Source of the DNA: a virus
Lineage: Duplodnaviria; Heunggongvirae; Uroviricota; Caudoviricetes
Reading direction: 5' to 3' (one strand)
IMG/VR virus record: IMGVR_UViG_3300035210_000190
Length of the DNA stretch: 64,000 nucleotides
A program made the translations under genes and the position numbers. Below are positions 3,387 through 63,101 of the stretch, piece after piece (position 1 is the first letter of the stretch; each line of letters starts with the position of its first letter). The notes beneath the pieces were generated by a model, which was not told the origin of the DNA, did no database searches, and was given only the letters and a program-made list of their open reading frames with translations.

Positions 3387-4355
3387 ATGTTTGCAGACTA
3401 TATCGAAAATATTCAATACGCATCTTCTGATTACAGGAAGCGTGATCGATTTCTGGCTAAAAATGTCGTTATCCGACTTCCTTATTTGTCTCCACAGCAT
3501 TTTGTTGACTACTCCAAAAACCCTTCAAAGGTTGTAGAAGAATTAGAAGAATTTATGAAGCCTATTATAGAATCTTCTGGTACGTGTCTATTCTTCTCAG
3601 ATTTTATAAGTAAAGATTCTGTTTACACTATTTATAAGATAAAAAGAGAAAATTCGAGTGCTGCCCTTACAGATTTTCTTGAGGAAAGCTTTCAAACAGC
3701 TAAGCAGGATGATCTGATCATTCGATCACAATTGTCAGATTCTTTCGAAAAGATTTTTGATGGTTTATTTGTTGGAGAAACGTTTAAACAACGATTTCTG
3801 ACTGACTTAAAGACGAAAAGCGTTTCTACTGATTTTTCTATTTCAGGGTCTTTGGCACCTGATCGATTAATCAAAAAATCTGGTCATTATTTTGTTAATA
3901 TAAATATCAGGTTTACCCCAGAACATGAAGCTTTTTTAAGAAAAGTTTTAAATATCACCACCAATGTTGAACTCTTATATAGGGGTTATGTATACTTTAA
4001 ATCTGACTTCACTGTAAAAGAGTTTAAATTTAAATTGTTTTCAGCCACTGATCTTCATCGTGAACATTTTGAGTATTCTCGATCATCACCTACATATGGG
4101 TTTATTACCACTGAAAAAAAAGCAAAACCTTATGCCTACGATCAAAAGCCTAAATTATTTTTCAAGCACTTTACTCCTGATGAGTATAAATCCATCTTAT
4201 ATCAACTTCTAAAATTTCTGAATGATTCAGAAACGCTTGCTAAATATTCAGAATTATTGCCTGAACTGTATAGGCCGTCAGCCTATGACTTTTCCAGTCT
4301 ATCTATGGATGAGTTGGATACTCGTTTGATACTTCAAGACATGATTGACATTTAA
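3387..4355 (+). CDS. Hypothetical protein with C-terminal LPEL..SAYDF...DMIDI motif
   Basis: 322-aa ORF, upstream TATAAT and GAAGG RBS; C-terminus matches 13641..14393 and 20042..20737. Confidence 0.85.
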   Translation: MFADYIENIQYASSDYRKRDRFLAKNVVIRLPYLSPQHFVDYSKNPSKVVEELEEFMKPIIESSGTCLFFSDFISKDSVYTIYKIKRENSSAALTDFLEESFQTAKQDDLIIRSQLSDSFEKIFDGLFVGETFKQRFLTDLKTKSVSTDFSISGSLAPDRLIKKSGHYFVNINIRFTPEHEAFLRKVLNITTNVELLYRGYVYFKSDFTVKEFKFKLFSATDLHREHFEYSRSSPTYGFITTEKKAKPYAYDQKPKLFFKHFTPDEYKSILYQLLKFLNDSETLAKYSELLPELYRPSAYDFSSLSMDELDTRLILQDMIDI

Positions 4356-18519: not shown

Positions 18520-19920
18520 ATGAGCAAACATAACTATAATTTTTCAGAAGTTTCTGCTGTTAATGAAATTCCAAAGGGCACCGAAGTCGTAGTAAGCACT
18601 TATCAATCCTCAGAAGATGGCCCGATTATCCATGAATCCATTCCTGTTGATATTCATCGTTACCTTGATGAAGAAAATTTTAGCGTTCAACATGGGTCTG
18701 TATTCTATGTCATGCTGCATGTCAAAGCTGATGACAAATCAGTTGCTAAAAAAGTGACCACTGCCATTGCTGCCTTGCCAAAACATCTCACTAAGGTATC
18801 TGTTCTTGCTACTGTCGGTTGTTTGAAACAGTTTACTGCAGCTCTGCTGGTGGCGACTGCTCAACATTGGACAGCGAAATCCGAACAAAAAGCAAAACAA
18901 CCAAAAGACGTGACTATTGTCTATGAAGGTGATGAACCTCTTGGTGAATTGAACGACCAAATTCAGTTAGGTAAAGCACTGGCATTGGCTCAGGCAACCA
19001 AGATTCGTCTTATTGAAATGCCTTCCAATTATCTTACGCCTACTGCTTTGCTTCAAGAAGCCAAGAACGTCATGGAATCGAGCCAAAAGGTCACGCTTTC
19101 TGTTGTCAGTGGTAAAGACTTGGAAGAAGAAGGATACGGCTCGCTTTACGCAGTTTCGAAAGGTTCTGTTGAAGAAGGGCATTTGATCACTCTTGAGTAT
19201 AATGGCGGTGTCAAAGGTGAGGCTCCTATTGTTCTGGTGGGTAAAGGTCTGACGTTTGACTCAGGTGGTATTTCTATTAAGCCATCCCGTGGCATGGGCC
19301 GCATGAAAGGTGATATGGGTGGTGCAGCTACCGTTCTCGCTTCCTTGATTTATGCGATTGAAGCCAATGTGAAGAAAAACATTGTGGCGATCATTGCAAC
19401 GTGTGAAAACATGCCAGATGCTGCTGCTCTAAAACCGGGTGATGTGATTACTGCCAAAAACGGTAAGACGATTGAAGTGGAAGATACAGACGCCGAAGGC
19501 CGTTTGGTGTTGGCTGACGCCTTGTGCCATGCACAAACCTTTAATGGTGCTGTAACCATCGACTTTGCGACACTAACAGGTGCTGTGATTGCGGCTATCG
19601 GCCATGTTCACACTGGCTTGTTCACTGAAAGTGATGAGTGGGCTGAAACCCTTCTGGCTGCTGGTAAAGCTTCTGGTGATACAGCGTGGCGTTTGCCGAT
19701 GGGTGATGAGTATAATCATTTCCTTGAAAGCTCTGTTGCCGATCTGAACAACCTTTGCTTGGGTCAGGGTGCAGGAGCCACCAACGGTGCTATCTTCTTG
19801 CGTGAGTTCGCTCCAAAAGAAAACTGGATTCACCTTGATATTGCAGGCACTAGCGATCACAACGGCGGTACCGGACGACCTGTTGGGTTGATGTCTCATT
19901 TCTTGGACAGCTTCCGTTAA
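18520..19920 (+). CDS. pepA: Leucyl aminopeptidase, peptidase family M17 (PepA/PepB-like)
   Basis: VGKGLTFDSGG, MKGDMGGAA, TDAEGRLVLADAL and WIHLDIAG; metal-ligand and catalytic residues present. Confidence 0.95.
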   Translation: MSKHNYNFSEVSAVNEIPKGTEVVVSTYQSSEDGPIIHESIPVDIHRYLDEENFSVQHGSVFYVMLHVKADDKSVAKKVTTAIAALPKHLTKVSVLATVGCLKQFTAALLVATAQHWTAKSEQKAKQPKDVTIVYEGDEPLGELNDQIQLGKALALAQATKIRLIEMPSNYLTPTALLQEAKNVMESSQKVTLSVVSGKDLEEEGYGSLYAVSKGSVEEGHLITLEYNGGVKGEAPIVLVGKGLTFDSGGISIKPSRGMGRMKGDMGGAATVLASLIYAIEANVKKNIVAIIATCENMPDAAALKPGDVITAKNGKTIEVEDTDAEGRLVLADALCHAQTFNGAVTIDFATLTGAVIAAIGHVHTGLFTESDEWAETLLAAGKASGDTAWRLPMGDEYNHFLESSVADLNNLCLGQGAGATNGAIFLREFAPKENWIHLDIAGTSDHNGGTGRPVGLMSHFLDSFR

Positions 19921-34299: not shown

Positions 34300-34418
34300 A
34301 ATCGTCATCAAGAAGGGAAATACATTCTTGATTTTCGTTAAAAAGATGTGGATTATTTTAAGTTTCTCATAATCTGTATCGAGGGCGTGAAAGCAATTTT
34401 AGGCTTCGTCTGTTCCAC

Positions 34419-34491
34419 AGAGGTGTATATCAGTTGGTAGATAGTCTCCCTCGCAGGGAGAAGGTCGCGGGTTCAAGTCCCGTCACTGATG
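34419..34491 (+). tRNA. Degenerate tRNA-like element, nominal anticodon CGC (Ala)
   Basis: D arm TATC-AGTTGGTA-GATA, anticodon arm TCTCC-CTCGCAG-GGAGA, T arm GCGGG-TTCAAGT-CCCGT; two acceptor mismatches, no CCA. Confidence 0.6.
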
Positions 34492-34519
34492 TGGATTTAG
34501 GCCGAGAGGTCAGGACAAA

Positions 34520-34593
34520 TACGGTGTATATCAGCGGCCTAGATAATCTCTCTAACCGAGAGAAGGACGTAGGTTCAAATCCTACCACTGTAT
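34520..34593 (+). tRNA. tRNA-like element, nominal anticodon AAC (Val), atypical loop
   Basis: Full acceptor TACGGTG/CACTGTA, D arm TATC/GATA, anticodon arm TCTCT-CTAACCG-AGAGA, T arm GTAGG-TTCAAAT-CCTAC; no encoded CCA. Confidence 0.7.
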
Positions 34594-34603
34594 TGCAAGA
34601 ACC

Positions 34604-52836: not shown

Positions 52837-53064
52837 ATGTGCAGTAAAACAGATGCTGATGGTTTTCTGCCTTGCCCATTTTGTGGTGGCACTGAAATTC
52901 ACATGGAAACATGGAGCCGTCAACGAGGTGAGTGGCAAGGAAAAGTAACCAATGAGTGCTGTGGATATACGTTCATTGTCTTGAATGTCTATGGATCTAC
53001 CAAGAAAGAAGTTATCGAATTCTACAAAAAAATGTGGAACAAAAGACCAGAAAAAGCTTGCTAA
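52837..53064 (+). CDS. lar: Lar-like restriction alleviation protein (Zn ribbon)
   Basis: LPCPFCGG...ECCGY...EVIEFYKKMWNKR matches the Lar family layout. Confidence 0.7.
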   Translation: MCSKTDADGFLPCPFCGGTEIHMETWSRQRGEWQGKVTNECCGYTFIVLNVYGSTKKEVIEFYKKMWNKRPEKAC

Positions 53065-53086
53065 GTGGTTCGAAGTTTGATAGAAT
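53058..53086 (+). promoter_or_regulatory. Sigma70-type promoter of the ncRNA + tRNA operon
   Basis: TTGCTA-17-TAGAAT. Confidence 0.75.
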
Positions 53087-53111: not shown

Positions 53112-53268
53112 CAGAATTCGGAGCCTGCGTAAAAGTGGGTTGGGTGGCAGCGGTGTCGCGGGCAAGCCACTAACGAGACATGAGAGCAATCTCTGTCTCA
53201 CGGTAGAGAGGGGAATTAAAGTGTGGTTTGCTTTGATTAAAACGGCTGGGTGAGTCGGCTCCTTTCTG
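53112..53268 (+). ncRNA. Unknown structured RNA
   Basis: GC-rich non-coding island closed by CAGAA/TTCTG and GGAGCC/GGCTCC; internal GTGGC/GCCAC and GAGACA/TGTCTC stems; GCAA tetraloop. Confidence 0.65.
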
Positions 53269-53290
53269 CTAACCTAATTTAAAAGTTTAT

Positions 53291-53446
53291 ACAGTAGTAG
53301 CTCAACGGTGGTTAAAGTAGGCCGCGACTTGCAAGGAGATTCTAGACTCTTTTCTTGACGGTTTGGCTGATGATAAACCGGCTTTCGACAGCAGAGCGTG
53401 CCCTAATAAGGCAAGGTGTTTGGTTCGACTCCAGCCTATTGTACCA
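53291..53446 (+). tRNA. tRNA-Ile(AAT)-like gene with 79-nt structured D-loop insertion and encoded CCA
   Basis: Acceptor ACAGTAG/CTATTGT-A-CCA; TAGCTCAACGGTGGTT...AGAGCG; anticodon arm TGCC-CTAATAA-GGCA; T loop TTCGACT. Confidence 0.75.
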
Positions 53447-53454
53447 ACAACCGA

Positions 53455-53488
53455 AAACAACTTGTTGAAAGACAGGTTGTTTTTTTTT
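53455..53488 (+). terminator. Intrinsic terminator of the ncRNA-tRNA unit
   Basis: AAACAACTTGT-TGAAAG-ACAGGTTGTTT followed by a T run. Confidence 0.8.
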
Positions 53489-53588
53489 GCCTAAAAGATA
53501 TGAAAAATCATAAATTACTTCAAAAAACACTTTCTTTGAGTGTTCATATTTGGTATACTAGACCTTCAATATTTGGAGATACCCGAAA

Positions 53589-56342: not shown

Positions 56343-56750
56343 ATGGCATTCGCCTACTCAGCCGCTTATCTCGCTCACGGTTCGAATAAACTTTTCGAAG
56401 ATCTTGGTGTGGAAAAAGGTAAACTTCACATGACCACTTGCTTCGACACCACAGCTACCATCAAGCCATCTGACAATATTGATATTGTCTACAAATCGGC
56501 GGTTATCTCCAAAATTACTGAACGTTTAACACCGTATGGCGTTTATGTGATTGCTGAGTTGTCTGATTGTGGGTGGAGCATGGTGCTGAATGCTCATTTC
56601 AAATCCAAAGGTGCCGTTGAAGACTTGCCGCATTTCCCTCACATCACCCTGTTGAAAGCTTCGTCACCTGAGTTGGTCGAGAACCTTCAATCGCTCGTTG
56701 GCACAGAAATTTATTTTGACAGCCATGTCGTTAAGGTCAAAGGACTTTAA
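56343..56750 (+). CDS. acb1: 2H phosphoesterase resembling anti-CBASS nuclease Acb1 (T4 gp57B)
   Basis: Two HxT motifs in KLHMTTCF and GAVEDLPHFPHITL, paralleling my recollection of T4 57B KIHSTICY and GATHDFDDYTPHITL; GAGGA RBS before ATG 56343. Confidence 0.7.
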   Translation: MAFAYSAAYLAHGSNKLFEDLGVEKGKLHMTTCFDTTATIKPSDNIDIVYKSAVISKITERLTPYGVYVIAELSDCGWSMVLNAHFKSKGAVEDLPHFPHITLLKASSPELVENLQSLVGTEIYFDSHVVKVKGL

Positions 56751-58810: not shown

Positions 58811-59293
58811 ATGCAAGAATTGGCCTCAGTCATTAAAGAATTCATGTTGAAACGAGGTGAAACCATCTCGGTTGCTGAAAGCCTCACCAGTGGCTATCTG
58901 CAGGCCCACATGTCCGCAGTTGCAGGATCTTCTAAGTATTTTGCGGGTGGTATTACCGCCTACAACATCGACATGAAAGTTAAGTTTTTGAATGTTGATC
59001 GAGCGAATGCTGAAACATGTGATTGCGTCAGTGAACAAACCGCCATCGAAATGGCAAAAGGCGTTGTTGAGCTTTTTGATACTGATTATGGTGTTGCTAC
59101 CACGGGTTATGTGGATAAAGAGAACTCGAAAGGAATGGCCCATGCTTATTTTGCCATCTACTCACGCAGAGATCGCAAATTGCATAGTTTCTTTATGTCT
59201 TGCACCCATTTGGAAGAAAGAACTGCAATTCAGGCATATTTTGCTAGACTTGCGACCGAAAAGTTGGTAAAATTCTTAACAGTTGACCTCTAA
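58811..59293 (+). CDS. pncC: CinA C-terminal domain protein / NMN deamidase (PncC-like)
   Basis: ISVAESLTSG, GSSKYFAGGITAY...K, VSEQTAIEMAKG and VATTG signatures; catalytic Ser and Lys positions present. Confidence 0.88.
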   Translation: MQELASVIKEFMLKRGETISVAESLTSGYLQAHMSAVAGSSKYFAGGITAYNIDMKVKFLNVDRANAETCDCVSEQTAIEMAKGVVELFDTDYGVATTGYVDKENSKGMAHAYFAIYSRRDRKLHSFFMSCTHLEERTAIQAYFARLATEKLVKFLTVDL

Positions 59294-59319: not shown

Positions 59320-59766
59320 ATGCAAACTATCAAAGCAGCAACCAATCAAGAACTTGTTTTGGTACGTGGTCACTCGGGCAGTGGTAAATCCACTTTCGCG
59401 GGTTCTTTTGTTCCTTTCGGCTACAAGCATTTTGAAAACGACAGTTTCTTTGTCGGTGAAGATGGCGTTTACAAATTCGACTTTGCTTTCCATCAGGTTG
59501 CCAAAGACGAGTGTGTCAAAAAAGCGGTTCAAGCTTTGCTGGATGGGGAATCGGTCGTGGTGAGTAACACCTTCACCAAAGTGGTTGAAATGGACTCGCT
59601 GGTTTCTTTCGCTAAAGAGTTGGGCATTGATATTCGAATTTTTGAGATGGAAAACGATTACGCCAATACCCACAACGTGCCAGAAGCTGTGATTATCGAA
59701 AAGAAGGCTGCTTTTGAGCCGATTGAGACGGCTTTGAAGGTTAAAGGTGATTATGTAGTCGTTTGA
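59320..59766 (+). CDS. P-loop kinase (AAA_33 / polynucleotide-kinase-like)
   Basis: LVRGHSGSGKSTFA, VVVSNTF, HNVPE. Confidence 0.85.
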   Translation: MQTIKAATNQELVLVRGHSGSGKSTFAGSFVPFGYKHFENDSFFVGEDGVYKFDFAFHQVAKDECVKKAVQALLDGESVVVSNTFTKVVEMDSLVSFAKELGIDIRIFEMENDYANTHNVPEAVIIEKKAAFEPIETALKVKGDYVVV

Positions 59767-62488: not shown

Positions 62489-62547
62489 AACTTTTAAAGA
62501 AATATCTGTTACCAAGGAGCTTCGGCTCCTTTTTTGTTAAAAAAACT

Positions 62548-62576
62548 TTGACATAGACATCTAATTATCGTATAAT
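62548..62576 (+). promoter_or_regulatory. Perfect sigma70 consensus promoter
   Basis: TTGACA-17-TATAAT with no substantial + strand ORF before the next terminator. Confidence 0.9.
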
Positions 62577-62582
62577 TGTGGC

Positions 62583-62905
62583 ATCCAATACGAAATACAT
62601 TTATGTTTTCGTAAGGCACACACTGTTGTCATTTTTTGACATTCGGATAATTGGGAGGTCTTGGTGCAGACACTCATTCTGATGGGATTTACCTCGACCA
62701 TTGGGGACTGCAAGGGGAAAACGCTATTAACTTTCTTAGCAGAAAGGATCGAAAGATTATGGCACATGAGCTAGGTAGCGACTGCTCTGCAATCTGACTC
62801 GCTCAGATTGTATTAGAGAGATCCTTCGATGAAGTTTTCTTTAATACAATTTCAATGAATCACAATCAACATAAGCCCTTTTGGTGTAAGCCATTAGGGT
62901 TTTTT
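62583..62905 (+). ncRNA. Unknown ~320-nt structured RNA
   Basis: Multiple nested stems (TACGAAA/TTTCGTA, GAGGT/ACCTC, GAAAAC/GTTTTC, AAGGATC/GATCCTT, GCAATCTGA/TCAGATTGT); ends in CCCT..AGGG-T-run terminator. Confidence 0.65.
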
Positions 62906-63101
62906 ATTTATCTTTTTTCGCTAAATCGTCTAAATACCTATTCTGGTGGATTTACAAGACTGGACTTTTTTGCTAAAATAGAGGATCAAATTTCAGTTAT
63001 GATATTTTTGAAAAAACTTAGAAATGATTGAAAAAAATCTTGTCATTGATTGACTTCGTTGGTATAATTACCCCACACAAACAGATACGGAGTTACACAA
63101 G

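Follow-up and report, generated by a model that had tools for sequence, protein, structure and literature searches.

A modular and uncatalogued family of structured small RNAs predicted in giant phages

Comparative sequence analysis indicates that the structured RNA described here belongs to a real, uncatalogued and modular family of small RNAs of giant phages. It lies in a 64,000-nucleotide stretch of viral DNA (Caudoviricetes; IMG/VR record IMGVR_UViG_3300035210_000190; hereafter the window), which with its many short genes, host-type promoters and virion-like proteins looks like part of a giant phage, and which has relatives on contigs of 437 and 678 kb. An earlier, sequence-only reading had singled out positions 53112-53268 as a GC-rich island poor in open reading frames, on the + strand between a promoter-like site and a tRNA-like gene, and this description is confirmed, all three + frames being interrupted by stops. 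Given one predicted promoter and one predicted terminator (Table 1), the structured RNA and the odd tRNA-like gene behind it are likely co-transcribed in the window. By pattern scans and by way of neighbour proteins, we recovered 19 distinct copies of the RNA from related giant phages, 63-99% identical to the window copy and 135-245 nt long; all 19 belong to one uncultured giant-phage clade, and exact-pattern scans can miss distant members. There are one to three copies per genome, placed among tRNA and tRNA-like genes.

Table 1. Predicted features of the structured RNA and its transcription unit in the window
Feature	Positions	Strand	Remarks
Lar-like gene, upstream; 3' end overlaps the promoter	52837-53064	+	phrog_599, E 6e-5
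Sigma-70-type promoter (-35 and extended -10), predicted	53058-53086	+	-35 at 53058, -10 ends at 53086, predicted start ~53093
Structured RNA, corrected limits, 167 nt	53114-53280	+	Covariation, folding, homologue alignment
P1, 5' strand; paired to 53273-53280 except for one pyrimidine mismatch	53114-53121	+	Double change in 4/7 pairs
P1, 3' strand; beyond the limits first drawn	53273-53280	+	
P2 hairpin, 7 bp, 6-nt loop with invariant final A	53122-53141	+	100% paired; double change in 5/7 pairs; 5 tree events
P3 hairpin, 6 bp; loop of 16-17 nt, near-invariant (53149-53165), as candidate binding surface 1	53143-53171	+	Stem 100% paired; double changes 4/6
P4 hairpin, optional; loop of GNRA type (53186-53189) only in close relatives	53175-53199	+	Missing from copies A and B of G001; loop differs in distant copies
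Portable three-way junction; candidate binding surface 2	53202-53270	+	Covariation; duplicated in C-type copies; reused in another G001 RNA
Parts of the three-way junction	P5 53202-53213/53259-53270; P6 53214-53238; A-rich linker 53239-53242; P7 53243-53257	+	
Odd tRNA-like gene with D-loop insert	53291-53446	+	Downstream neighbour in 8 close relatives; outside the RNA family
Intrinsic terminator, predicted (narrower limits 53453-53484); closes the promoter-RNA-tRNA unit	53453-53490	+	

A seven-helix fold of the RNA, as predicted from the aligned copies, is strongly supported. P1 joins the 5' and 3' ends; the multi-way junction that it closes bears P2, P3, the optional P4 and P5, and P5 in turn closes the three-way junction of P6 and P7. 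Both-sided change, which was seen in 18 of 56 pairs with the first 11 copies, rose to 34 of 56 with all 19, where 95.6% of cells are paired and none of 500 shuffles scored as high. Because the 19-copy alignment was fitted to the fold model, two further checks were made: of the first 11 copies, 10 returned this topology when folded as single sequences, and tree parsimony counted, over 23 pairs, 31 compensatory events, where 1.6 +/- 1.4 are expected from re-paired columns (null maximum 8). The RNA also folds better than chance, with a z-score of -2.9 on 53112-53268 and of -3.6 on the corrected limits (to ~53280; 0 of 200 shuffles), and the two stretches fold into different topologies.

The difference bears on the helices that had been drawn first, as the true 3' end is at 53280 and not at 53268. 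The helices said to close the 5' and 3' ends form only if the sequence is cut at 53268, and 12 more bases change the fold. The inner of these closing helices, GGAGCC with GGCTCC, has no compensatory event, is intact in 11 of 19 copies and broken in 8, and was rejected: its 5' strand pairs locally, in P2, and with the 3' tail, in P1, and the partner of its 3' strand is the purine-rich strand, in P5. When the 5' bases change, it is the P2 partner that follows, while the partner first assigned to them stays as it is. The idea that P5 forms a pseudoknot over the old closing helix was rejected, the fold being nested. The hairpin with the GNRA loop does exist, as P4, but it is missing from two copies and carries other loops in distant ones.

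Invariant bases are enriched among unpaired columns (22 of 57, vs 21 of 112 paired columns) and cluster in the P3 loop (13 positions across the 19 copies), at the joint of P1 and P2, and around the three-way junction. No extra conserved helix of at least 3 bp was found among the unpaired columns of the 19 copies, and hence no conserved pseudoknot, so that the invariant unpaired bases are left unexplained by pairing in cis. Inside the P3 loop, two G-C pairs are invariant throughout and so give no information for or against pairing at these positions.

The RNA is built of two modules, a two-hairpin head with the near-invariant P3 loop and a three-way junction with invariant junction bases. The three-way junction is doubled in the C-type copies, and it occurs alone in an otherwise different RNA of the phage G001 that has its own promoter and terminator. 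This latter RNA, at L077 1408-1600 (~407990-408180 of G001), runs from promoter to terminator, folds with a z-score of -3.5 and carries the same junction behind a different 5' domain.

The copies are independent of their downstream neighbours. Of the 14 copies examined, 13 have a promoter-like site 13-27 bases 5' of P1, and the one without it comes second in a tandem pair; the neighbour on the downstream side may be the odd tRNA, a second copy, a tRNA-Cys of normal type, a different ncRNA, a promoter or a terminator. Each of the eight window-type copies has the odd tRNA downstream. In G001, which is 98% complete, there are three copies and no odd tRNA; copies A and B are shorter and stand in tandem directly 5' of a normal tRNA-Cys, and one copy comes after the same Lar-like gene and is followed by a different ncRNA. 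The sister group G002-G006 contributes eight copies, two per record, of types C and D, where the C copies begin after their own promoter and the D copies consist of promoter, RNA and terminator, the terminator coming immediately after the RNA with no tRNA behind.

Several other structured stretches were seen around these copies. A second conserved ncRNA has no Rfam match (L010 2045-2335; L082 13503-13651; L081 4309-4486); in G001 it comes immediately after the main copy, and in G002-G006 it follows the D copy at a distance of ~1 kb. In L081, there is just 5' of copy C a tRNA-like gene (2830-2972) whose 5' part is enlarged, and a GC-rich structured stretch (3845-3960) follows copy D by ~400 bases. 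A tRNA of G001 (L005 7866-7941) was called with a four-base anticodon.

Searches for the family elsewhere gave no homologue. Rfam 15, the scan of which had been proposed with the earlier reading, returned no known family at gathering score and only chance matches at E<=10 for the window and four divergent copies, and BLAST against GenBank phages likewise gave chance matches only. A pattern scan of GTDB genomes gave 26 matches, of which the best scored 15.9 bits with model R1 as against at least 99 for true copies, an exact pattern that may miss distant homologues; 11 further viral pattern matches were due to chance, and a protein-based search of viral contigs found no relatives. The motif words of the RNA are absent from the literature searched, and a survey of viral structured RNAs (PMC10690425) might already list the family. 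The earlier call of a novel ncRNA is thus upheld by the lack of an Rfam family, the strong covariation and the presence of an own promoter in nearly all contexts. So is its failure to match tmRNA, RNase P, SRP and intron motifs: ARAGORN reported no tmRNA and there is no T loop, and the 19 copies contain none of the CR-I or CR-V motifs of RNase P RNA (0/19 each, with no P4 pseudoknot), the SRP54/Ffh-binding loop of SRP RNA helix 8 (0/19), or the P7 and J6-7 core motif of group I introns (0/19, with no P3-P7 pseudoknot).

The interpretation that we prefer, at a confidence just short of even, is that of a free-standing, trans-acting small RNA that binds a protein as a decoy or scaffold. What points to a trans-acting RNA that presents binding sites is the combination of free-standing genes, the presence of several copies, a module that has been doubled, and conserved unpaired surfaces lacking any partner in cis. 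Transcription would start at host-type promoters, with the RNA leading the transcript, and the paired ends of the RNA would keep it stable once excised. The P3 loop and the junction would then be two conserved surfaces read in trans by a protein or a complex, with extra copies and the doubled junction adding binding sites, and the RNA would act on that ligand as a decoy or scaffold; in the genome of the window, the tRNA-like gene may simply share the promoter of the RNA. The identity of the ligand is the least certain step, and a host protein of RNA-directed defence or of RNA turnover is a doubtful candidate for it. Neighbour genes of the counter-defence type suggest a decoy role, the link to defence coming from the neighbourhood only. 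Against a protein decoy, it can be argued that the conserved unpaired bases would be just as much in keeping with a small-molecule pocket, a catalytic centre or tertiary contacts, that no neighbouring protein gene is common to all the phage groups, and that all the copies come from one clade. A broader proposal, which we consider possible but unlikely, is that the family represents a counter-defence or translation-modulating RNA assembled from mix-and-match binding modules, or else a new ribozyme class, so that giant phages would assemble their RNA tools from a shuffled junction domain, much as protein domains are shuffled.

The neighbourhood itself holds Lar-like, Acb1-like (weak), CinA and AAA_33 genes, and RNA ligase genes in other relatives, and none of the protein genes adjoins the RNA in every phage group examined. 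In the window, the Pfam matches of syntenic relatives' genes indicate probable Acb1-like 2H phosphoesterase, CinA/PncC-like and AAA_33 kinase genes at 56343-56750, 58811-59293 and 59320-59766, respectively. Some relatives, L040 among them, have the Lar-like gene and lack the RNA unit; in L040 (10001-11482) and in L041-L043, a gene for a T4 Rnl1-type RNA ligase comes after the Lar-like gene.

The best placed of the alternatives, itself unlikely, is a cis-acting 5' leader that protects or processes the RNA that follows it, for instance by blocking 5'-dependent decay or by placing host RNase P or E. In keeping with such a leader, the RNA is promoter-proximal in nearly all contexts, and the gap between RNA and tRNA is 2 bases for copy B (tRNA-Cys) and 10 bases for the window copy (odd tRNA). 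However, a terminator follows right after the D-type copies, the spacing between RNA and tRNA varies and the other tRNAs of the window have no such leader; moreover, a simple hairpin would be sufficient for this role, with no need for invariant loops.

Ranking below the leader is a function carried by RNA alone, in the form of small-molecule binding or self-assembly into oligomers, after the example of GOLLD (RF01998) and ROOL (RF03087). These are also orphan structured phage RNAs with variable extra arms, they often lie near phage tRNA islands, and they self-assemble (bioRxiv 10.1101/2024.12.08.627333); a multi-way junction with an invariant core, as predicted here, would be in line with such a role. 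Yet the family has neither an expression platform nor a gene to control, it is without an Rfam match, its members measure 135-245 nt against several hundred, the RNA being one quarter of the size of GOLLD, and no pseudoknots or kissing loops were detected in the family. The P3 loop pairs with itself no better than do random fillers (ranks 22/64, 47/64 and 15/16), a null against which self-kissing was rejected, and no complementary pairs of loops were found.

That the RNA is a folding partner of the odd tRNA, an idea put forward with the earlier reading, we hold to be improbable. According to this model, the P3 loop (53155-53161) kisses a perfect 7-base complement in the D-loop insert of the odd tRNA (53322-53328) so as to form one RNA complex, and the complement is indeed kept in the eight close relatives, once as a G-U pair. 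But shuffles yield a 7-base complement between the loop and the insert about 5% of the time, the pairing shows no two-sided change, and the D-type loop is unable to form it. The P3 loop is equally conserved in G001, whose three copies have no odd tRNA to pair with, and D-type copies have no tRNA behind them at all, which argues against a tRNA partner as the job of the family. In other genomes no partner RNA for the loop was found, the further matches to the 9-base partner word lying in apparent coding sequences. The anticodon loop of the odd tRNA varies in sequence and length among close relatives, with the acceptor stem and the insert kept, and this would fit a non-decoding RNA. Capture of tRNA 3' ends by the P3 loop was also considered, after exact complements to the ends of tRNA-Pro and the initiator tRNA were noticed by eye, and was rejected: in a comparison of all fillers with 65 tRNA ends from E. 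coli and phages, the ranks of the real loops are 10/16, 37/64 and 61/64.

The other function first suggested, that of a ribozyme, here one of a new class which cleaves itself or processes tRNA, is less probable again. The size, the compact multi-helix fold and the invariant junction bases do resemble those of ribozymes, and the theta ribozymes of gut phages, which are minimal HDV-like RNAs that process tRNA 3' ends (PMC10879173), are likewise small structured RNAs beside phage tRNA genes. They act at the 3' ends of tRNAs, though, whereas the RNA studied here lies 5' of a tRNA or stands alone, and it has no nested double pseudoknot. Nor is any pseudoknot or catalytic motif conserved in the family: the core motif of the hammerhead is found in 0/19 copies, as are the RNase P and group I motifs, and the junction module has been duplicated and moved independently. 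A look-alike of the AGC triad of group II intron domain V in P2 is present in 15/19 copies, lacks the 2-nt bulge and is replaced in the D copies, and this identity was rejected. The RNA is probably not a ribozyme, and probably has no dedicated role as partner of the odd tRNA.

Finally, that the family is a selfish or functionless repeat which just happens to fold is hardly credible, for despite the confinement to one phage clade and the variable copy number that would suit it, this reading is largely refuted by the 31 compensatory events, and the family has its own promoters and terminators and an identity to L021 of 86% in the RNA as against 74% and 62% in the flanks.

Several further systems can be compared. 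The closest in genomic setting are RNAC and RNAD of phage T4 (species 1 and 2 RNAs, 139 and 119 nt), which are also small ncRNAs, arranged in tandem within a phage tRNA cluster and adjacent to one of its tRNA genes, and whose function is still unknown (PMC12685909). The likeness does not extend to homology of sequence or fold: models R1 and R2 gave no match in the T4 RNAC/RNAD region, and RNAC carries a tRNA-type T loop, which is found in 0/19 copies of the present family. The Y RNAs (YrlA, RF02553) are alike in their paired 5' and 3' ends, in their length of ~100-200 nt and in their modular interior; our family differs in having no match to Rfam, no Ro60-binding helix motif (0/19) and no T loop. 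No Ro60/TROVE gene was found in five phage records, one of them near complete, and the host could supply Ro60. The P3 loop begins with eight bases that, together with a 2-bp G-C closure, are similar to helix 23 (the 690 loop) of E. coli 16S rRNA, but an 8-base match is near chance and model R1 found nothing in the E. coli rRNA operon, so that this resemblance is a weak lead only. Two regulatory RNAs were rejected as models, a T-box leader (motif in 0/19, the look-alike bases being paired in P3 and covarying) and a CsrA/RsmA sponge (the GGA motif word in 10/19 only, the sole invariant GGAG being paired in P1/P2).

Phage tRNA islands hold orphan RNAs of unsolved function, such as T4 RNAC and RNAD, GOLLD and ROOL, and the present family adds to these a set of natural variants, with or without P4, with one or two junctions, free-standing or linked to a tRNA, and with the junction on another RNA. 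With such variants, tests by pull-down, cleavage and structure would be direct. The reuse of a portable RNA domain between genes is unusual in itself.

Other parts of the window also have unusual content. A non-coding stretch at 62542-62909 is kept in L031, L033, L034 and L044, and contains neither module of the RNA family. Genes for tRNA-Ala(CGC) and tRNA-Val(AAC) lie at 34418-34594, both with mismatched acceptor stems or without a clear CCA; a valine anticodon with A34 is unusual in bacteria and phages. The phage also carries a leucyl aminopeptidase-like gene, at 18520-19920.
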